The translations under genes were made by a program, and so were the position numbers. A stretch of 64,000 bases of DNA, from the IMG/VR virus record IMGVR_UViG_3300043812_000026, one strand, 5' to 3'. Below the pieces are notes generated by a model, which saw only the letters and a list, made by a program, of their open reading frames with translations, ran no database searches and was not told the origin of the DNA. Numbering within the stretch: the stretch's first letter is position 1; the number at the start of each line of letters is the position of its first letter. Positions 2,351 to 42,430 of this stretch are shown here, piece by piece. The stretch is from a virus (taxonomy: Duplodnaviria > Caudoviricetes).

Positions 2351-2417
2351 CTTTAGATCTCACCACCCGTCTACTTAGAATACATAAACTTTTCTGTTTA
2401 ATAATATAGGAAACTAG

Positions 2418-4007
2418 CTAATCTGTATTACCTACATTAGTCTCCTCTGGACTCTTAAGATCTTGTTTATTAGGATCTTCCTTAGCGTCTGGTTTCTTAT
2501 CTAATGACTGCTCATGTCCCGGCTTATAATCATTTTGATGTTGTTGTTCTGCATTAGCTTCTGGATTCATCTTATCTTGAATAGCTAACCATTGAATAAG
2601 GTTATCAGAGTTACCCGGAATATCTGGTATATCAAGCTTAGGTAAATGCATCAATGCTCTCGACTCATTTATGGTTAATCCATTCTTAAGTTTTAATGCT
2701 AACTCATCTTGTAGTTGTTTCTCTTTACCTTGATCGCTTGGACTAAAGACAAACATATAATCGGATTCAACATAGCGTAAGATCTTATCAGTCATTAGAC
2801 GTTCAATGTACTTCATAACAGGTTCTAACCCATTATTACGTGAAGCGTCCATTTTGGTTCTAGTAGTATTACCCTCATTTAAGGTACTACCACCAGTCTT
2901 ACCATTAGCTCCCCCACGATTAGGAAAGTTAATCTCGTCTGGTTGGATATTAAAATCAGCACAAATAATATTATTAAGATAATTAAGAAAATTAACAAAT
3001 TCCATATCCTTAGAGGATTGTGTCATATTGACATACTTTGCATCATGTGCTTGAATAATTGGAATTTTCCACGAACCATTGATTCCTTGTGCTGGAGTTA
3101 AATTACGTCTTAATGCGTCTAAGTTAGACTGAGAAGTACCAGAACCGTCACCCGGATCTAAAAGCAACAGACCACGAGTCATACCACCTTGACTAAAGAA
3201 ACGAGCATTAAATTGCTCAACATTAATATGGTACTGAATATGTTCCATACCTGCTTCAACAGGTGAAAAACCATACCCACCAGAATAAGGCTTATCTTGA
3301 CTCCAATAAGTAGAAAATACTAGCTCCTTACTATTAAAATAAATTCTATCTTTATCACTAGCATTACTGTTAACTACCTGCACAAAGGATTTAGGTTTAT
3401 CAATACTAGTAGGGTATTTATCAATTAAAACCGTAGAAGCGTCTACATGGTTAAAATGATTTAATTTATTAGATCTTTTACTTTCATAAACCCGTTCAAT
3501 ATTAACTTGGTCAAACACATAAAAATCATAAATAATCTTAGCTAAGAAAGTTGGGAAATCATCACGCCAGTCTAATTGGTCCTTACCAGTATAAAAGATA
3601 AAGTCCTCTAGCTTTTTAGCAACATTTTTTTCATGTGTTGTCATATCACTAAGTTGCTTGCCTTTTTTAACAACTCTAAACCCATTACCGTCATTAGATA
3701 AACGGGCAGGAGTAGCAAAGTTTAAGATCTGATTAGTTCTAGTTCTAATAATTGCTTGAACTAATAGATCATCTGCATAAGCTCTTAGTTGGTCTTTCTT
3801 TCTTAAATAATAATCTTGGTTAATCTTTTCTCGCTGGGGGTTTTGGCGATTGTGACTATCTGCACCAATTTGAATATAAGCATTATCAACCCGCTGGTCT
3901 GATCTACCAGCTCTAAAGCTTTTAGCAATTTCTTGCTTATTCAACTGTTCAAGATCAATGTAATCATCAGCATTCTCAGAGCCAAACCAGCGATCTAAAA
4001 AACTCAT
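2418..4007 (-). CDS. Portal protein
   Basis: YGFSPVE, FNARFFSQGGMTRGLL, DMEF and TINESR motifs; 529 aa; directly after terminase. Confidence 0.92.
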   Translation of the reverse strand: MSFLDRWFGSENADDYIDLEQLNKQEIAKSFRAGRSDQRVDNAYIQIGADSHNRQNPQREKINQDYYLRKKDQLRAYADDLLVQAIIRTRTNQILNFATPARLSNDGNGFRVVKKGKQLSDMTTHEKNVAKKLEDFIFYTGKDQLDWRDDFPTFLAKIIYDFYVFDQVNIERVYESKRSNKLNHFNHVDASTVLIDKYPTSIDKPKSFVQVVNSNASDKDRIYFNSKELVFSTYWSQDKPYSGGYGFSPVEAGMEHIQYHINVEQFNARFFSQGGMTRGLLLLDPGDGSGTSQSNLDALRRNLTPAQGINGSWKIPIIQAHDAKYVNMTQSSKDMEFVNFLNYLNNIICADFNIQPDEINFPNRGGANGKTGGSTLNEGNTTRTKMDASRNNGLEPVMKYIERLMTDKILRYVESDYMFVFSPSDQGKEKQLQDELALKLKNGLTINESRALMHLPKLDIPDIPGNSDNLIQWLAIQDKMNPEANAEQQHQNDYKPGHEQSLDKKPDAKEDPNKQDLKSPEETNVGNTD

Positions 4008-4121: not shown

Positions 4122-4630
4122 TTAGAACTCCGTTTCGTTCTTAATCTCATATTCACGTTGTATATCAGTCTGTTCTGGGGTAAAGATGTCATTATCAAGA
4201 TAATCAATCTGTGTAGACTTTCTACGCTTCATAGCGTCCTCTTTCATTAACTTATCAAGCCCCACCATTGCATAAACACTTGCTTGTGCTGAATGATCAC
4301 CATCTTTACGAGTAATAATTTGAACTTGTTGTATAGTGTGGGTTTGCTTATCTTCTCTATCATCAGTACGGATAATAATATTCTTCCAATGAGTAATAAA
4401 TAACTTAATCATTGGGTCATTTTGAGATCCTTGGTAGAAATGAATATCACCCCGTCTCAAATTACCCATCATAATTTCATTTTGTGCTAACTTATCAATT
4501 AAAACAGAATTATCAGAGTCATTAAAATGAGCTACAAAATCCCCCTTAGAAAGAGCAGAATTTACTCGTACCCCATAAACACGTTGAATTCCATAATAAG
4601 CCATTAATTTTTGATTATAGGAACCAGAAT
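4122..4630 (-). CDS. terL: Terminase large subunit, exon 2
   Basis: Joining after the omega-G at 4631 restores PDSG-YSGSYNQKLMAYYG; contains the DGDH nuclease motif; spliced protein is 609 aa. Confidence 0.85.
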
Positions 4631-5891
4631 CAACTTAGAAATACATTTCTGTACACAACCTAAGCTAGATTATATCTTAATGATACAAAATAGTATCATC
4701 ACTACTATTGTTAATTATCTTAACTATATATGTCTTAATATCCTTATAAGTATTAATTCTATAAGGTATTCTAATAAGTTTTATACCTGCTTTCTCACAA
4801 AAAGAGTCCTTAATTTTATCATGTATTATACCAGTTTTACTATAAAATAAACTTTTATTTTTATAGTGTTGAACACCATCATACTCAATACATAAATTGT
4901 AATCAGGTAAATAAAAGTCAAAAGGTAGCATCCGTTTATCTATACAGCCACTAAAAGTTTTTTGATAATCATACTTAATTCCTAAGGATTCTAATATCTC
5001 TAATATTAGAACTTCACCTCTTGAACTGTTATGACAAAAGTAACAACCTATATGCTTATCAACTATCTGTCTAAGAGATAAATATATAATATGATTACAC
5101 TTTTTATGCTTTATTCTCATTTTAGTATGATCATCTTTATAATTATCTATTCTTATATACGTATTTCCAAGAATATCAAGTATTAGTTGATCTACCTTTT
5201 TATTATCATATGTTTTATGTATCTTTCTTAGATACCTAGCACACTTAGGACATCTTCTACCTTGTATAAATTTTGTAATATTTACTCTATAAGTAAATTT
5301 TCCTCCATCTATACAATGATTATGAGTAATTACAATTTTATGCTTAGTGTCTATTTGTTCAGAATCTATTGTATATTCATCACCAACTAACTTTTGAACC
5401 TTCTGTCTATAGTATTGAGAACCCTTCATACGTCCCTGCCCCTGTCTTCTATGACCACATCTGGGACAACCACAGGAAGAGTTTAATAACTGGTTAGGAG
5501 TAACCTCCCACTCCCCTTTAGAACCATAGTTACAAACTAAACACTGATGTTTTATTTTTACTAAGATACCTTTATAGCTCTCCAGAGGAATAATACTAGG
5601 TTTCTTTTGTTTTAATTCTGAAATATATTGCTTATTAGTACGTTTTGCCAAAGTTTACTTTCACCTCACTTATAGTATAGCAAAGTATAAGTATTCTGAG
5701 GCAAATATAATAGTAAATAATTAAAGCTTAATCGTTAGTCATTTAATTTAGAACGGTTGGTCAACTCTATCCCTAATTACTAGGATTTAGTCTTTCTTAC
5801 TAGCTTATTCTTTATTGTAATTATTATTTAGCTTTACCCGTTTAAGTAGTTTATTTTTCTAAATATTACTATTTAGTGGAGCTATCTGTTA
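4631..5891 (-). mobile_element. Group I intron in terL carrying a homing endonuclease
   Basis: P1 GGGGU/GCUCC with U.G at the 5' splice site; P7 GAUUA/UAAUC (cuaacGAUUA ... aagauaUAAUCu); terminal G; reading frame restored on splicing. Confidence 0.88.
4677..5651 (-). CDS. Intron-encoded homing endonuclease (zinc-ribbon repeats plus PD-(D/E)XK/Vsr-like domain)
   Basis: Repeated CPxC motifs; SRGE, FDFYLP and IEYDGVQHY; lies inside the intron between the P7 strands. Confidence 0.85.
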   Translation of the reverse strand: MAKRTNKQYISELKQKKPSIIPLESYKGILVKIKHQCLVCNYGSKGEWEVTPNQLLNSSCGCPRCGHRRQGQGRMKGSQYYRQKVQKLVGDEYTIDSEQIDTKHKIVITHNHCIDGGKFTYRVNITKFIQGRRCPKCARYLRKIHKTYDNKKVDQLILDILGNTYIRIDNYKDDHTKMRIKHKKCNHIIYLSLRQIVDKHIGCYFCHNSSRGEVLILEILESLGIKYDYQKTFSGCIDKRMLPFDFYLPDYNLCIEYDGVQHYKNKSLFYSKTGIIHDKIKDSFCEKAGIKLIRIPYRINTYKDIKTYIVKIINNSSDDTILYH

Positions 5892-8480: not shown

Positions 8481-9940
8481 CTGCTATATAAAATGTGAAC
8501 AAACATAATCCTATATGCTAAGTAATTATGTTTGAGAAAGAAATATAGCTTTTCCTTTCTTTATTTTATTTACTGTCGTCAACGCTGGTATTCTCATATC
8601 CTAACTAGAGGGTAATGGCATTGACCAACTATTACAGCTTAAGGGCTTAGCCAGCCCCAATTATATTTTTTTCTTCTTTACGCTAAAGCCAAAAGATTTA
8701 AGACTGCATTTTGGTCTCGATCCATTACCACACCGCATTCATAACAAATATATTCATTGTGTTTAGTACCATGTTTTTGATTACCATCGAGACCAATTTT
8801 ATCTTTGCCTTGCTTGATGTGACCACATGCAGAACAGCGTTGTGTTGATGGATAGAATTGATCAGCTAAGATTAATTCTTTACCATACCATTCACACTTA
8901 TAGGTTAATATTTGTCTAAAATAACCAAACAGTGATCTCTGCATACCTTTAGAAGCTACATGAGTCATCTGCATCTGTTTGACTGCTAAATCTTCAATGA
9001 CAGTCTGGTCATAACTATCAACCAGCTTAGTCGTAAACTTCTGCAAAAGATCATGTTGGATATTAACTACTTTACGATAATCACGTTGCAACTTGGCTCT
9101 CGTTTTAACGTAATTATTACTTTGTGTAGCTAACTTACCATTAACCTTTCTCTTACGAGCTAGCATTTTTTGATAATGCCTGATCCGCTTATAAAGCTTT
9201 TGCAATTTAGCAGGTAAGACGTTAAGCTTCCCATCAGTATAGTTAAAGTGACCTACATTTAGATCTACTGCCGTCTTATTACCAGTTTTAGGTTTCTTAG
9301 CTATTTCAACTTCAAAAGGTAGGCTAGCCCAGTATTTACCATTTTCACGATAAATTGAAACAACTTTTAAATCACCATCTAAAGCCTTAGCACCTTTAAA
9401 ACTAATATCATACCAAGTTTTAACTCTGTGTGGTTTATCAAGTCTTAACTTACCATTAACAATCTTAGCTCTATCAGTTTTAAATCCTTGTCTAGGAGCT
9501 TTCTTAGATTTAAATCTAGGCTTTCCCCAATCAGGTAATGCTTTATTAAAGAACTTCTTCCAAGCATTACCTAAATCAGAAATTGCTAAGTATAAACACC
9601 GTGACGATAAACTATATTGCCAGTCAGCTTTATTAGAGGATAACTCCTTACGGACTCTGCTTTCATTAGGGATAGGATTGTCTTTCTTGTTCAAGTTATG
9701 AGCTTCATACATATCATTCCACAGCTCTAACCCTTGATTCCAACAATATCTACGATAATCGCATAGATCATCAAGAACTTTCTTCATTGTTTGGTTGGGA
9801 TAGAGTCTTACCTTTTGAACTCGAATCATTATTTTCACCACCTTGCATTGACATAATATCTACCTCACATTTTATCTTTCTGTAGATATTATATCATAGG
9901 TGATCGTATTTTAATATCCTTTAATTAACAGTTAATCACC
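8481..9940 (-). mobile_element. Non-autonomous IS607-like tnpB element
   Basis: tnpB followed by a roughly 200-nt structured 3' region ending TATAGCAG|G; no tnpA; left end approximate. Confidence 0.6.
8678..9841 (-). CDS. tnpB: TnpB RNA-guided nuclease
   Basis: RLYPN N-terminus; RuvC D (AVDLN), E (IEDL), D (DRDQNA); CxxC zinc ribbon. Confidence 0.93.
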   Translation of the reverse strand: MVKIMIRVQKVRLYPNQTMKKVLDDLCDYRRYCWNQGLELWNDMYEAHNLNKKDNPIPNESRVRKELSSNKADWQYSLSSRCLYLAISDLGNAWKKFFNKALPDWGKPRFKSKKAPRQGFKTDRAKIVNGKLRLDKPHRVKTWYDISFKGAKALDGDLKVVSIYRENGKYWASLPFEVEIAKKPKTGNKTAVDLNVGHFNYTDGKLNVLPAKLQKLYKRIRHYQKMLARKRKVNGKLATQSNNYVKTRAKLQRDYRKVVNIQHDLLQKFTTKLVDSYDQTVIEDLAVKQMQMTHVASKGMQRSLFGYFRQILTYKCEWYGKELILADQFYPSTQRCSACGHIKQGKDKIGLDGNQKHGTKHNEYICYECGVVMDRDQNAVLNLLALA

Positions 9941-23354: not shown

Positions 23355-23789
23355 TCAGTTTTCAACCTTTTCTTCAATAAAAGAAATATTGCTAAATCCC
23401 TCTAATTTTCTTGCAATTACCTTTAGTAAGTCAACATTTTTAAGTTTATTGCCTTCATTATCAACAAACCCGTTACGTCCTCGCTTAGCTAATAACTTCT
23501 TAGTAGTGAAAGTTTTAATTAAATACTGATTATCAGTTCTAATTAGTATCGACTTATTTTTAGAATGATCATAAGCTTTGAGAACCTGAAAGAAGGATTT
23601 TAGGGATAAACGATCTAAGTCAGAATTATCATCTGCCTTACTAAAATGATCCACAGTCTTACCATGCTTACAAGTATAAGAATAAACACCTCGGTTATTC
23701 TTATTAAAGATTGAAACATCGTATTTTGATGTAGGAACATTACCTGTAAGTAGGGGTAATGTTGAGAATGTGAACTTTTGTCTTGGCAT
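23355..23789 (-). CDS. Degenerate RNase H-fold protein
   Basis: ILIRTDNQYLIK and LKNVDLL match RNase HI motifs; the first catalytic DG motif is not evident. Confidence 0.6.
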   Translation of the reverse strand: MPRQKFTFSTLPLLTGNVPTSKYDVSIFNKNNRGVYSYTCKHGKTVDHFSKADDNSDLDRLSLKSFFQVLKAYDHSKNKSILIRTDNQYLIKTFTTKKLLAKRGRNGFVDNEGNKLKNVDLLKVIARKLEGFSNISFIEEKVEN

Positions 23790-24886
23790 TATAAATTAAT
23801 TCCTTTCTTTTCTTGGTATTCGTCCATAGCTTGATTAACAAGACTATCAACAAAATTATTCCCTTTATTATCTTGATGACTTTCGACTTTATATAAGAAA
23901 ACGTTACTAAATTTCTTTAAATGCTTTAACATACTCAGCCAAAGATCAGCATTCTTAATTTTTTCACCGTTAGGTTTCTTCAAATCATTCTTCGCCCAAG
24001 TGTATAACCAGCTATCGTTAGTCAGAGCTTTAATTACATACTGAGAATCAGTAACAATAATAATTGGTTTATCGTGTAAGTAATGAGCATCTCTTAAAGC
24101 TTGCAAAACCGCTTTTAACTCCATTCGCTGGTTAGTAGTGTTTTGAACCGCCTTATTAAAATTGATAGCGGGACGGTCTGGAATTTGAATCGAATAAGCA
24201 TAAGCGCCAATCTTAGTCTTATTTCTTTTACCACCATCAGTGTAAATTTTAATAGCTTTCTTAGGCAAAAAATCAAGCTGTGATAAAGGAGTAAATCCAT
24301 AGTCAATATGTTTCTTACCTTTTTGGATAATGATAGGATTACCAGATTTACGTTCAACCTTATTTCTAGTAAATTTCTTTCTTAATCTTGCACTAATATG
24401 AGGTCTAATTGTTTTAAGAATTTTCATTAATTCTTGATACACCCTAGGACTAGGATCAACTTCTTTAATAAGAAATCCTTTCTTAAATTGAGAAAGTAAT
24501 TCCCCAACCCTAATTAACATCTTTCTTTCCTTAGGAGTTAATCTAATATCATCTGGGTTAACCTTACCAGTAATCAAGTCTCTTAATTTAGGGTCTTGGA
24601 TTTCAATACAAATAACCTGTCTTTTCTTCATCGTTTGAAGAGCAATAATCAAAGCTCTCATATTAAGGATAAACTGATTAAGATTTTTAACAGCTTTATA
24701 ACCTCGATCAGTCTTACTATTTCCCATAATAAGATAGCCATAGGACACTAATTGAATTGGACCCAAGTCACAGTTTTGATTGTGATAGCTTGTGACTACA
24801 ATTTTATAACTGAAATCACCTTGCTTTAACAACTTAAGATTATTAAGTGATTTAACTGTATTAGATTTTGTTCTCATTTTATTCAT
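23789..24886 (-). CDS. rnhA: Ribonuclease HI with N-terminal extension
   Basis: IYTDGG, TTNQRMEL, VTDSQYV, KNADLW, SH..N..VD. Confidence 0.9.
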   Translation of the reverse strand: MNKMRTKSNTVKSLNNLKLLKQGDFSYKIVVTSYHNQNCDLGPIQLVSYGYLIMGNSKTDRGYKAVKNLNQFILNMRALIIALQTMKKRQVICIEIQDPKLRDLITGKVNPDDIRLTPKERKMLIRVGELLSQFKKGFLIKEVDPSPRVYQELMKILKTIRPHISARLRKKFTRNKVERKSGNPIIIQKGKKHIDYGFTPLSQLDFLPKKAIKIYTDGGKRNKTKIGAYAYSIQIPDRPAINFNKAVQNTTNQRMELKAVLQALRDAHYLHDKPIIIVTDSQYVIKALTNDSWLYTWAKNDLKKPNGEKIKNADLWLSMLKHLKKFSNVFLYKVESHQDNKGNNFVDSLVNQAMDEYQEKKGINL

Positions 24887-31465: not shown

Positions 31466-31524
31466 AGGGTAGTAGTTCAATGGTAGATCATGCAAGGACG
31501 GGGGTTCGATTCCTTCCTACCCTA
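31466..31524 (+). ncRNA. tRNA shell lacking the anticodon arm
   Basis: AGGGTAG/CTACCCT acceptor, D-arm, GGGGG-TTCGATT-CCTTC T-arm; only about 10 nt between D and T arms. Confidence 0.7.
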
Positions 31525-37730: not shown

Positions 37731-40700
37731 ATGAAAAGAATGTTAGTAGTATTGGATCATTATGACGCTGATATGTTTAAAGTGGTTAATAAGAAAGCCG
37801 AAGGAAACTTTTTACATAGTGTCGTAGGTTCAATTCTTTCTAATAAAATTATTGGTCACCCAAAAACAGGTTTAGATACGAAAGATACAACAGTAGACTT
37901 GAAGTTTCTTTATACTGATAAAGTACCCCCTCGTAATAAATACACTAATGCAGTTGTTAAGCCATCTGCTAGTATCTTGCATAAGAAACGTGATGAGATG
38001 GTGCAGTATATCTTAGATACTAAACCCGATATTGTTGTTTCTTATGGAAGTTGGTTTAAGAATGAATTAACTTCTTTATATAAACTTCCTAAAGATATGT
38101 TTGAATTAATTCCGTTTAAGCTACCCCAAAGTGACTTTACTACTTACTTAGTATTTAACCCGTCACTTAAACAACAATTCTTCTTGGGTAGCTATGAACG
38201 AGATAAGATGATTATTAGTAATCGAATGGTTAATCGGTTTTTAAAAGGTGGGATTGAGAATACTAAGCCTCAGTTTGGTAAGTATCGTTTAGTTACTAAT
38301 TATCATGAGGTAGAACGTATTTTTAATGAAGTTTTACCTAAGTACCCAATCATCGCACTGGACTTTGAAACTAATACCCTTGAAACTTATCGTAAAGGGT
38401 GCTAAGGCTATTATGGTAAGTATGAGTTGGGAAGAACATCAAGGTGTTTCGATTCCGCTTAATCATCGTCTTAGTCCTAATTTGTGGACTAAAGAACAGT
38501 TCGATAGTATCATTAATATGATTAAAGAATTAATGATGAAAGAGCAACGTAAGGTATTACATAACTGTATCTATGATATTCATATGATGATGGATATTTA
38601 CGGGCTAGAGTATGCTACTAATTGTGTTGATACTATGCTTATGTATTATGAAACAGTGGATGAGAACCAAGGCGCTCAACGTGGGCTAAAGCACTTAGCT
38701 TATAAGTATACTGATATGGGTGGTTATGAAGACGAACGTGATCAAGCTATTGAACAATACTTAAAGAATGATTATGACCGTTGGTATTCTACTGAAATGG
38801 AAAAGTATGAAAAAGGCGAACGTAGTCGTAAGCCAAGTAAGACACAGTATACAGCTCCTACTAACCAAGTAGACGGTGGTAAGGTAGATTTCGAGTGGTT
38901 GCCTATGGAAACTATTTATAAGTACGCTTCTGCTGATACTGATGTTACCCTCCAACTTTATCACATTTTTGATAAAAAGGTTAAGTCTCGTCCTAAGTGG
39001 GTTAAGTTCTGCTATGAATTCTTCCCACAACTATGCGATACTTTAGCTTATATGCAACATACTGGTTTTCAAATGGATATGGATAAAATGGAGAAATACA
39101 GAGAACACTTCACTACTGATATTGAAGAAGTTACTAAAAAGATGTATGAGGTTTCTCCCGAAATCCAAGAATACGAAAATCATAACCTAGCTCTTTTGCA
39201 AGAACGGGAACAGATTAAAGCTATCAAGCCTGCTGATCGGACACCAGAGCAGAAAGAGAAATTTAAGGAATATGGTAAGCTACGTGGTGAAGATACTAAT
39301 GGTATTCCTAAATACAAGTTTAACCCTGGATCTAGTGAAAAGATTGGCTATGTTTTATACCATATGTTAGGCTACAAGCTACCTGCTGATAAAGAGTATT
39401 TAAAACCAAAAGCTGTCCAGTCTCGTAAGTTAAGCCATCCAGAAAAACTTACGTGGAAAGATTATAAGACTGATCGTAATTCAGCCCTACCCTATATTAA
39501 AAAGACTTATCATGCTCCATTAGTTGATTTATTGTTGGCTTATTCCAACGATAAGAAAATGATTAGCTCTACTGTTGAGGGATATAGTAAGCTGGCTGAT
39601 GCTACGGGAAAATCACATCCTACTTTCCACCCATCTGGTTGCTTAGACGGGGACACTTTAATCCCTACCAGTTTAGGTATTAAGAAATTAAAAGATCTTT
39701 CAGACAATAGAGAAGAAGATACTTTTAAGGATTTGAAAATTGATATTATTAATAAAGATAATAATAAAGAATTAACAGACGCTTTTTATTATTCTGGTAT
39801 TCGAGACTCCTATCAGATCAATTTAGAGAATGGTAGTAGTATTATTACTACTCCTAACCATCCTCTGATTGTTAATAATTTTTTAAAAACTAATAATAAA
39901 ATTCCAATGTACAAATATAAAGGAAAACCTTACTTGACTAACTATTTAAGTAAGTTTAATGATGAGGAATGGCTACCTACTAAAGATATTAAGGCAGGTT
40001 ATTGGATTAAAGGTACTATTGGGGGAAATATTTATGGTAATAAGACAACTATTGAATTTAACGACAGTGAATTTCCTAGCAATACTAGAAGTAAAAAGAA
40101 AAAAGTTACCCTCCCACATGAGTTGACTCCAGAGCTAGCAGAATTCTTAGGAATGTATACTGCTGATGGTAGTTATAGTAGTAGCAAAAAGGGTAGCCAG
40201 ATTCTTATTACTAATGATGATCAAGTTGTTCAGGAGAGGTTGGATTATTTAATTAAACACTTATTCAATGTAGATCCTTATTATCGAGTAGATACAAGAC
40301 ACGGTAGGGAAATTACTGTTAATATAGGCTCTACACAAGTTTTTAGGTATCTTAAAAAAATGTTTAATATTAGTTCCCGAGGGTACGAAAAAACCGTCCC
40401 ACAGTTAATATTAGACTCCACAAAAGAAGTTCAATTAGCTTATTTAAAAGGACTTACGCTTGACTCTAGTATTTATAAGAAAGGGTATCCTTCCATTTAT
40501 TTAAGTACAACCTCGGAGGAGCAGGCAAAGGCAGTCTATTCGATGCTATTAAATATTGGTATCTATGCTAGATTTGCTAAACGTAAGATTTACCCTAGAC
40601 TAGGGTATAAACATGAACATCCCTTATATGATATAATGATTAGTCACGAAGACGTAAAAGTTTTTGTAGAGTGTATAGGATTTGTTGAAATAGAAGAAAA

Positions 40701-42430
40701 GCTTAAACCTTTGATTGCTAAAATAAATAATTATTCTTATACGAAAAAACCTAAACATTATGGTGTTATAAGATATAATAATTTTATATGGTTAAAAATA
40801 AAGTCTATTGATTATTTAGGAAAAAGACCTATGTATGACTTAAAGACTTGTGACACTCATAGTTTTTTAGGTAACAATATTATTAGTCATAATACGTCTA
40901 CTTCTAGGCTCTCTAGTAGTAATTTTAATGCCCAGAATATTAAAAAGCCTACAAGTGACGTTTATGATCCTAATTATAATTATTCAGCTAAAGGACTATT
41001 TAAGTCAAGATTTAAGGGTGGATATATTTTTAATATTGATTATAAGTCACTAGAAATCTTTATTTCTTCTTTAATTGCTAAAGATATTGGTATGATGCAG
41101 GCTTTAATGGATGGTGCTGATATACATAAACGTAACGCTAGTTTAGCTTTTAACATTCCTGTTGATGAGGTAGATTCCGAACATAGATACCTTGCGAAAG
41201 CCGTAGACAAACTTGCGGCCATATTATAGTAATATAATTTGAAAAACATCCCCTAAACGGGCTTACCGTAATAAGGTGGTAAGAGAAGCTAAACCTTATA
41301 ATTTAAGTAGGGCAGGCTAATCCCGTACCAAGTTAAAACAGGTCTAACGACTATATAGGGAATATCCTAATAGGATAAAGATATAGTCTTAACTATAACG
41401 AAAGTTATTAGACAAAAATGAAGTTTTGGTTAATTACTAAAAGTAAGCCACTTTTAACAGTAATGTTAATTGAAAAATATCCCCTAAACGGGCTTACCGT
41501 AATAAGGTGGTAAGAGAAGCTAAACCTTATAATTTAAGTAGGGCAGGCTAATCCCGTACCAAGTTAAAACAGGTCTAACGACTATATAGGGAATATCCTA
41601 ATAGGATAAAGATATAGTCTAATCTACTTAGAAATAAGTAGTTAATATAATTGTTACTTTACGGAGAGTCTCCACAAGGACTTTCAGAGTCACGTGGATT
41701 AACTTTAGAAGAAGCTCAACAGGTTTATGATAAAGTGCTAAGTGCTATGCCACAAATGCAAAAGGCGATTGAGGTTACCGAAGACTTTGTAGAGCAACGG
41801 GGATATGTAGAGACGATTGCAGGACACGTAAGACGATTACCAGAAGCTACTCAGAGTTTAGATTATGGTAAGAAATCTCGTGCTATACGTCAGTCTTTTA
41901 ACGCAGTTGTTCAAGGTAGCGGAGCATATTGTACTAATACTGCTCTAATTATCATTCGCAATACGTTACGTAAATATGGGTTAAAGTCTCGTATTGCTAT
42001 TACGGTGCATGACTCGATCGTATTAGACGTACACCCAGATGAAATTAATATTGTCCCAGCAATGGCAAAGAAGATTATGGAACATTTACCTATTCAAGAT
42101 TTTATTCTTAACATAAATGATTTCCCTACTTTAAAAATTGCTGATAAGTATAAGATTAATGATACTCAATTCCGTTTCCCACTTTTCGGTGAAATTGCTT
42201 TTGGCAAGACTTATGGTGATGATCTTGACTTCGACTTTGATGATTACAAAGCTCTGGGGATTGATAGGTATTATCAATTTAGTATGGAATGTAAGTACAT
42301 TGAGGATAAGGCTAATACTGATTTAAGTAAGGAAGATGATAATGATAAGAAAGCTGAGATTGTTAAACAACGAGATCGGCAATTAGAGGAAATTAGAAAT
42401 AAATATTTTAAAAAGGTTGACAATAAATAA
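37731..42430 (+). CDS. polA: Family A DNA polymerase (join 37731-41204, 41421-41430, 41654-42430; one extra base near 38397; intein)
   Basis: Exo motifs DFET, HN..YD, YASAD; RLSS; motif A DYKSLE; reconstructed motif B KAVSFGLLYG; motif C VHDS; mature length about 1001 aa. Confidence 0.92.
39640..40893 (+). mobile_element. Intein with LAGLIDADG endonuclease (418 aa)
   Basis: G|CLDGDT ... TPNHP ... LGMYTADG ... YLKGLTLD ... YDL..ISHN|T. Confidence 0.93.
41205..41420 (+). mobile_element. ORF-less group I intron 1 in polA
   Basis: P1 GCCGU/GCGGC, P10 AAACUU/AAGUUU, P7 GACUA/UAGUC, terminal G. Confidence 0.9.
41431..41653 (+). mobile_element. ORF-less group I intron 2 in polA
   Basis: P1 UGGU/GCCA, P10 AAAGUAA/UUACUUU; core nearly identical to intron 1; terminal G. 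Confidence 0.9.

Follow-up and report, generated by a model that had tools for sequence, protein, structure and literature searches.

The family A DNA polymerase gene, polA, spans positions 37731-42430 of a 64,000-nucleotide (nt) stretch of viral DNA (IMG/VR record IMGVR_UViG_3300043812_000026; hereafter the window, meaning the stretch at its full length), which sequence comparison assigns to a Herelleviridae-like phage of the Lactobacillus type. The C-terminal exon of the polymerase is 59% identical to that of Lactobacillus phage LfeInf (Hopescreekvirus) and has a more remote kinship to myoviruses of Staphylococcus, Bacillus, Enterococcus and Listeria. Within motif B of polA lie two adjacent segments with near-identical cores, and we consider it likely, from what the sequence itself offers, that these are two separate group I introns, each free of an open reading frame (ORF), with the splicing route and the history that are set out below.

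A 10-nt exon within motif B of polA

On the plus strand, exon 1 (38398-41204) encodes the 3'-5' exonuclease and the N-terminal part of the polymerase (Pfam DNA_pol_A_exo1 and DNA_pol_A) and ends in phase 2 with ...AAA GCC GT. It is followed by intron 1 (216 nt, 41205-41420), by the 10-nt micro-exon AAGTTTTGGT (41421-41430), which supplies the third base of a Val codon and the Ser-Phe-Gly of motif B, by intron 2 (223 nt, 41431-41653) and by exon 3 (41654-42430), which begins with LLYGES and holds the remainder of motif B, motif C and the C-terminus. The Pfam DNA_pol_A match follows this layout, as profile positions 112-212 stop at the end of exon 1 and the match restarts at 217 in exon 3, running to 359 and leaving four positions for the micro-exon. 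By our own alignment to the Klenow motif RRSAKAINFGLIYG, both insertion sites fall in motif B (the O-helix), at about codon 760 and between codons 763 and 764; the 60-amino-acid motif B stretch is uninterrupted in 789 of 798 phage records.

Joining exon 1, AAGTTTTGGT and exon 3 yields RYLAKAVSFGLLYGESPQGLS, which is identical to the product of two intronless relatives, L006 and L007. A preliminary description of the window, made from the letters alone, had proposed a 10-nt micro-exon that rebuilds KAVSFGLLYG, and this is precisely what the comparison returns. No other choice of boundaries retains the 5' U, the 3' G and the reading frame together. A single 449-nt intron, or a twintron, was also considered and was rejected, because its excision would take the micro-exon with it and disrupt the reading frame. 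In-frame stops come early in both introns (UAG at 41227-41229, eight codons into intron 1, and UAA as the first codon of intron 2 once intron 1 has been removed), and they would keep ribosomes off the ribozyme cores. No ORF of 40 amino acids or more lies wholly within either intron, so there is no intron-encoded homing endonuclease.

Near-identical cores with separate guides

The two introns share a direct repeat (41228-41395 and 41459-41626) of 168 nt with 96% identity and a period of 231 nt. Their 151-nt cores agree at 150 of 151 positions, the exception being C41247 versus T41478, much as the preliminary description had estimated; the longest identical run extends over 142 nt (41248-41389 = 41479-41620), and identity across the whole introns is 86%. 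One 23-mer of the core has exactly two occurrences in the window, where zero would be expected by chance. Both introns match Rfam RF00028 with full model coverage (intron 1, 45.8 bits, E 8.7e-10; intron 2, 42.4 bits, E 9.1e-9) and are the sole Rfam group I matches in the window at E <=0.01, while our own covariance model, R1, scored them at 231.5 and 248.1 bits, respectively. The identification of intron 1 draws in addition on pair counts and on flanks identical to those of an intron of three related contigs described below.

The 5' splice sites lie after U41204 and U41430, with a U.G wobble at both, and each intron ends in a terminal guanosine (omegaG; G41420 and G41653). In intron 1, the internal guide sequence (IGS) GCGGC (41215-41219) forms P1 with the exon sequence GCCGU (41200-41204; 5 pairs, U41204 providing the wobble), and the P10 guide AAACUU (41209-41214) pairs with AAGUUU, the first six bases after G41420. 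In intron 2, the IGS GCCA (41447-41450) forms P1 with UGGU (41427-41430; 4 pairs), and the P10 guide AAAGUAA (41440-41446) forms 7 pairs with UUACUUU after G41653. A cross-matrix of guides and exons gave 5+6 and 4+7 pairs for the cognate combinations and at most 5+0 or 4+4 for the non-cognate ones, in full agreement with the earlier proposal of two group I introns whose P1 and P10 are each fitted to their own exons.

Predicted ribozyme structure

The twins were aligned with four family members from the terminase genes of related contigs, and the resulting comparative model of six sequences comprises P2, P3, P4, P5, an extra stem inside P4, P6, P7 (with the P3/P7 pseudoknot) and P8. In this model 99.1% of the cells are paired and 11 pairs carry a change on both sides, i.e. 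are compensatory; none of 500 shuffles attained the observed values, and slid partners pair at 25-38%. In intron 1 the helices are placed at 41223-41228/41233-41238 (P2, GUAA loop), 41249-41255/41356-41361 (P3), 41257-41261/41322-41326 (P4), 41265-41267/41275-41277 (P5), 41327-41329/41341-41343 (P6), 41349-41355/41382-41388 (P7), 41364-41368/41372-41376 (P8) and 41393-41399/41404-41411 (P9, GAAA loop). In intron 2, P3-P8 take the coordinates of intron 1 plus 231, P2 lies at 41454-41459/41464-41469 (GUAA loop) and P9 at 41624-41630/41635-41641 (GAAA loop).

Every core helix is intact in both twins, and the R element (…CUAACGACUAUAU…) and the S element (…AAGAUAUAGUC…) are canonical and visible in both. 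Where the twins differ in P2 (AUUAUA/UAUAAU versus UUAACA/UGUUAA) and in P9 (CUAUAAC/GUUAUUAG versus CUACUUA/UAAGUAG), the changes are compensatory, and the GUAA and GAAA tetraloops are kept. Two earlier candidates were set aside in arriving at this model. Plain minimum-free-energy folds paired CUUACC with GGUAAG, a pairing that is not conserved in comparison with the terminase intron terA, and a first register for P3, AUCCCCUA/UAGGGAAU, was dropped for the one in common with terA of contig L009.

The P7.1/P7.2 elements of subgroup IA2 phage introns (of the Twort, T4 and SPO1 type) do not occur in the twins, in which the P3' strand comes directly after the 5' strand of P7 (41355/41356). An insert at this position is present in larger relatives, namely the tail-tube introns tt1 and tt2 of G004 and the intron in the window's own terminase large-subunit gene (terL). 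Because the twins are without the P7.1/P7.2 that these larger relatives have, they look like reduced derivatives of IA2-like phage introns; we assign them to no subgroup and do not file them as IA2.

The polA locus in related phages

Motif B was compared in five related contigs (L004, which is G001, L005, L006, L007 and L013). Both polA sites are intron-free in L006 (OOAW01000045.1, a complete genome of 152.7 kb) and in L007; in L004, L005 and L013 (OBLI01000024.1), site 1 holds a single intron of 1203 nt and site 2 is empty. The polA exons of the window are 94-97% identical to those of the relatives, with mostly silent changes. The 1203-nt intron shares P1, P10 guide, P2, P7-P8, P9 and 3' tail with intron 1 of the window and is different from it in the P4-P6 domain, and in its P6 loop it encodes a 232-amino-acid ORF with a weak match to NUMOD1. 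The two forms of intron 1 covary in P4 (ACGGG/CCCGU versus ACAGG/CCUGU) and in P6 (ACC/GGU versus GCC/GGC).

The Ser-Phe codons read AGT TTT in the intron-bearing alleles, which fits the P10 guide, and TCA or TCG followed by TTC in the empty ones, a synonymous recoding. The first ~280 nt of exon 3 (41654-41930, plus strand) are ~10% diverged from all five relatives, compared with ~1-3% beyond, and this 5' part resembles a co-conversion tract that an unsampled allele, with intron 2 already in place, may have donated.

Beyond these relatives, neither the locus nor intron 1 had a match among 50,697 phage records by megablast or blastn, and an exact search of metagenome contigs for the micro-exon junction gave no matches. 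A pattern for the core was found zero times in genome contigs, and in the metagenome and viral sets it recovered only the known relatives plus L013.

Family members elsewhere and the origin of the pair

Introns of the same family are found in other genes of the clade. In contigs L003 and L009 (the latter belonging to the L006 genome), the terminase gene is interrupted by several of them, including terB (after ...DEYDR), which is almost identical to intron 2 of the window in core, P9 and 3' tail and which in L009 has a 399-amino-acid ORF in its P1 loop. The P4-P6 domain, identical between the twins, is two or three bases off that of terB in L003 and L009. The P2 of intron 2 is identical to that of terA and to that of tt2 of G004, whose P9 and tail are also nearly those of intron 2. 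The terminase gene of the window is empty at both the terA and the terB site. Intron 2 thus combines modules circulating in the clade with a guide found only at polA site 2, and is no diverged copy of intron 1.

This bears on the recent duplication that the preliminary description had suggested as the origin of the pair. A tandem duplication of intron 1 within polA, after which the guide of the copy mutated to fit the neighbouring site, could account for cores that are identical at 150 of 151 positions, for the regular period of 231 nt and for sites that are just 10 nt apart. The parts in which the twins differ are, however, not novel: P2, P9 and the 3' tail of intron 2 match the terminase and tail-tube introns of relatives (terA and tt2 for P2, terB of L009 and nearly tt2 for P9 and tail) and not intron 1, whose own P1, P2 and P9 are orthologous to those of the endonuclease-bearing site-1 introns of the L004 type. 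Duplication would also demand that 11 guide pairs were copied and then re-evolved while the core stayed identical, and we regard it as very unlikely. Gene conversion between the cores, which had been named as a second option, does fit the data.

We infer that the pair was assembled by recombination within an intron family and not by simple tandem duplication. Site 1 would first have held an endonuclease-carrying intron, like that of three relatives. A second family member, already fitted to site 2, would then have arrived by recombination, bringing with it the ~280 nt of diverged downstream exon. Finally, through gene conversion, with the neighbouring intron or a third copy as the source, intron 1 would have received the P4-P6 domain found in intron 2, and the same conversion would have deleted the larger P4-P6 domain of intron 1 along with its endonuclease gene, resulting in cores identical over 142 nt. 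What the sequences show directly is their anatomy, the covariation, the exact return of the polA frame and the mosaic relationships. Gene conversion is the simplest reading of the P4-P6 identity; the order of events and the direction of conversion, like the catalytic activity of the introns, are deduced from these patterns.

Three further observations concern the family as a whole. The introns tt1 and tt2 are two ORF-less members on L015 (G004:C1:23214-23450 and 23570-23845, minus strand), ~120 nt apart and 71% identical, with an insert resembling P7.1/P7.2, and the gene that they interrupt is probably that of the tail tube. The terL gene of the window contains a further member (~4603-5880, minus strand; exon from 7212 to ~5881, next exon from ~4602), with the P7 GAUUA/UAAUC and a 324-amino-acid ORF (4677-5651), which Rfam missed and R1 scored at 30.5 bits. 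Finally, terA (L003 4348-4559; L009 2131-2345, minus strand) appears to end in A and not in G (...UUUGUAA|ACUUAC). This boundary is based on the intronless window, which reads FP|TYRQL, and on covariation in P10 (AAGU/ACUU versus GGGU/ACCU), and a terminal nucleotide other than G would be unusual.

Splicing order and the cost of skipping the micro-exon

Each intron would recognise its junctions by its own guide, and two independent rounds of guanosine-initiated splicing would join exon 1, micro-exon and exon 3 to encode ...AKAVSFGLLYG.... That the twin introns are self-splicing is a prediction from their anatomy. The preliminary description saw in the micro-exon both the P10 partner of intron 1 and the P1 partner of intron 2 and took this to imply ordered splicing. 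Both pairings stand, but they engage different, adjacent bases, P10 of intron 1 taking up 1-6 and P1 of intron 2 taking up 7-10. Since the two pairings abut without overlap, either intron could leave first, and base pairing by itself sets no order for the two rounds. Docking of both ribozymes at the same time on the adjoining micro-exon helices would seem sterically unlikely.

Skipping of the micro-exon, or a 231-bp deletion between the repeats, is computed to cause a frameshift with a stop after 16 codons, as had been anticipated in general terms for exon skipping and for recombination between the cores. The twin arrangement therefore carries a cost, as either event shifts the polA frame.

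It could be asked whether this cost is put to use, in that the identical cores fold in some transcripts as one large, domain-swapped ribozyme that skips the micro-exon, making polymerase output depend on guanosine triphosphate (GTP), Mg or the state of translation. Exon skipping has been documented for two identical Tetrahymena introns around a 24-nt exon in E. coli (PMC10136302), for the SIOphi terminase (PMC11878797) and for the similar Twort orf142 introns around a 23-nt exon, and skipping here would bring about the early stop. On the other hand, the guides of the twins are fully differentiated, and differentiation all but eliminated stepwise skipping in the engineered system (PMC10136302). 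Exon 3 offers no pairing to the P10 guide of intron 1. None of the five relatives has the twin arrangement, and two of them are intronless at this locus, so that the arrangement is not a conserved function. A regulatory device of this kind is, in our view, quite unlikely, and the throttle on replication that had been raised as a possibility is speculation; a hypothesis of the same type has already been published for introns of Bastillevirinae (PMC11878797). The identical cores would still permit the route through a single large ribozyme that was proposed for Twort.

Integrity of the gene and of the assembly

Several points weigh against the reading of two active introns with a mosaic history. 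Both RF00028 scores are below the curated gathering score of 50, intron 2 forms no more than 4 exon pairs in P1, and the introns are without the P7.1/P7.2 of their nearest larger relatives, so that their unaided catalysis is putative. Five relatives are the basis for the direction of conversion and for the co-conversion tract. The twin arrangement was found in one assembly only, with no second copy of the junction in the viral, metagenome and genome collections, and polA itself is broken by a +1 frameshift, so that the gene may be decaying if the lesion is real.

The single assembly, and the homopolymer-type frameshift nearby with its hint of sequencing errors, could suggest that mis-assembly, or polishing across a repeat, made the second copy or made the copies identical. 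A chimera could not, however, yield a guide that fits the polA exons (4+7 pairs), a frame-restoring 10-nt spacer and codons recoded to match P10, and for this fit of the guide to the polA exons a chimeric assembly was rejected; polishing could at most have erased a few differences between the copies. That the arrangement is an artefact is thus barely credible.

The frameshift (38390-38400, plus strand) reads AAAGGGTGC in the window and AAAGGTGC or AAGGGTGC in four relatives. It amounts to one extra G within a G run, which is either genuine or an error of homopolymer sequencing, and it breaks the gene into ORFs of 37731-38405 and 38326-41229; the true start of polA, 37731, lies upstream of the exon 1 ORF, across the frameshift near 38397. 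If one or both mini-introns were inactive and polA a pseudogene of a defective phage genome, this lesion in the exonuclease part, the want of P7.1/P7.2 and of an endonuclease in both introns and the short P1 of intron 2 would all find an explanation. We nevertheless hold such decay to be highly unlikely, as the core helices are intact in both copies, the exons have stayed close to those of the relatives with mostly silent changes, the intein in exon 1 is intact and the frameshift comes down to a single G.

Relation to known introns and significance

That closely spaced introns are known from phage Twort had been pointed out in the preliminary description, and the closest precedent is indeed Twort orf142, the intron work on which reportedly goes back to Landthaler and Shub in 1999. 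Introns I2 and I3 of orf142 are described as highly similar to each other, and the 23-nt exon between them is either skipped or included (PMC10136302, PMC11878797). As in Twort, a very short exon separates two ORF-less group I introns of high similarity within one gene of a Herelleviridae phage, with related introns in a single gene spaced by a few tens of nucleotides or fewer, here 10 nt, and the risk of exon skipping and the proposed single large ribozyme of both copies apply to either locus. The window differs in the length of the exon (10 nt as opposed to 23 nt), in its host gene, an essential DNA polymerase in which skipping shifts the frame, and in its cores, which are without the P7.1/P7.2 of IA2, are identical over 142 nt and are demonstrably mosaic; splicing at this locus is predicted from its sequence.

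In the engineered tandem of Tetrahymena introns around a 24-nt exon, differentiated splice-site recognition elements favour exon inclusion (Ueda et al. 2023; PMC10136302). The window likewise has identical cores around a short exon and is a natural instance of the same core with different P1 and P10; unlike the engineered tandem, it involves another type of group I intron and a 10-nt exon on which P10 and P1 abut. Very short exons between group I introns have been described elsewhere, with 1 nt between two group IB introns in placozoan cox1 (PMC5436844), 34 nt between two introns in the 23S rRNA of Coxiella (cited in PMC10136302), and a small exon in the ribonucleotide reductase (RNR) gene of phiNIT1 (PMC11878797). 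In these cases, as here, a very short exon has been cut off by a second intron lodged beside the first and has to be retained; their flanking introns are dissimilar or unrelated, whereas those of the window are near-identical and its exon is fully used by P10 and P1.

Group I introns in family A polA genes of phages have been reported for SPO1, SP82, Bastille, Pf-WMP3, phiL7 and phiI/W31 (PMC3428280, PMC11878797), with published insertion sites at 674, 676 and 881 in E. coli numbering (PMC3428280). They share with the window the insertion into conserved, functionally critical codons, an in-frame stop at the start of the intron and, in the relatives of intron 1, a homing endonuclease gene, but the window sites lie in motif B, at ~760 and 763/764, and have no DNA similarity to any isolated phage among the 50,697 phage records. 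For Herelleviridae, the literature already documents multiple introns in the genes for polymerase, terminase and RNR, exon skipping and a small exon enclosed by two introns (PMC11878797). The locus is therefore an extreme and unusually tight case of a known arrangement, distinguished by its 10-nt exon, its essential target, the identity of its cores and a mosaic history that can be read.

At ~570 nt the locus is a compact natural test bed for three questions. The first is how identical cores avoid or exploit cross-folding and skipping, which has so far been approached mainly with engineered Tetrahymena tandems and Twort orf142. The second is how short an exon can become when its halves serve as P10 of one intron and P1 of the next. 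The third is how group I introns reach new sites; the same core is found here with at least four different guides, visible recombination breakpoints and the loss of an endonuclease gene; on ectopic transposition of group I introns, the review literature notes no direct evidence (PMC3984707). A wider proposal, which we think unlikely, would make the twin pair a natural snapshot of group I ribozymes colonising new sites, one catalytic core being passed by recombination between six or more insertion sites that are spread over three essential genes of the clade (terminase, tail tube and polymerase), with guide, P2 and P9 swapped or re-evolved, and with twin cores that may co-fold, such that condition-dependent skipping of the micro-exon lowers polymerase output.

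Other features of polA and of the window

Exon 1 of polA also carries a LAGLIDADG intein of 418 amino acids (39640-40893, plus strand; Pfam Intein_splicing and LAGLIDADG_3), inserted at HPSG|TSTSRLSS, with boundaries set against L004; it is absent from L004-L007. With the two introns, it brings the number of selfish insertions in polA to three, and because of the intein, the introns and the frameshift together, gene callers will mis-annotate the polymerase as fragments.

Elsewhere in the window, an Rfam tRNA match of 59 nt (31466-31524, plus strand; 43.9 bits), without a call by ARAGORN, may represent a tRNA that is truncated or unusual. Immediately upstream of the terminase gene, a Transposase-1 RNA (RF03014, 62 bits; 8579-8637, minus strand) adjoins a TnpB-like ORF of 387 amino acids (8678-9841, minus strand), and the same layout is present in the relative L003 at 2409-3671.

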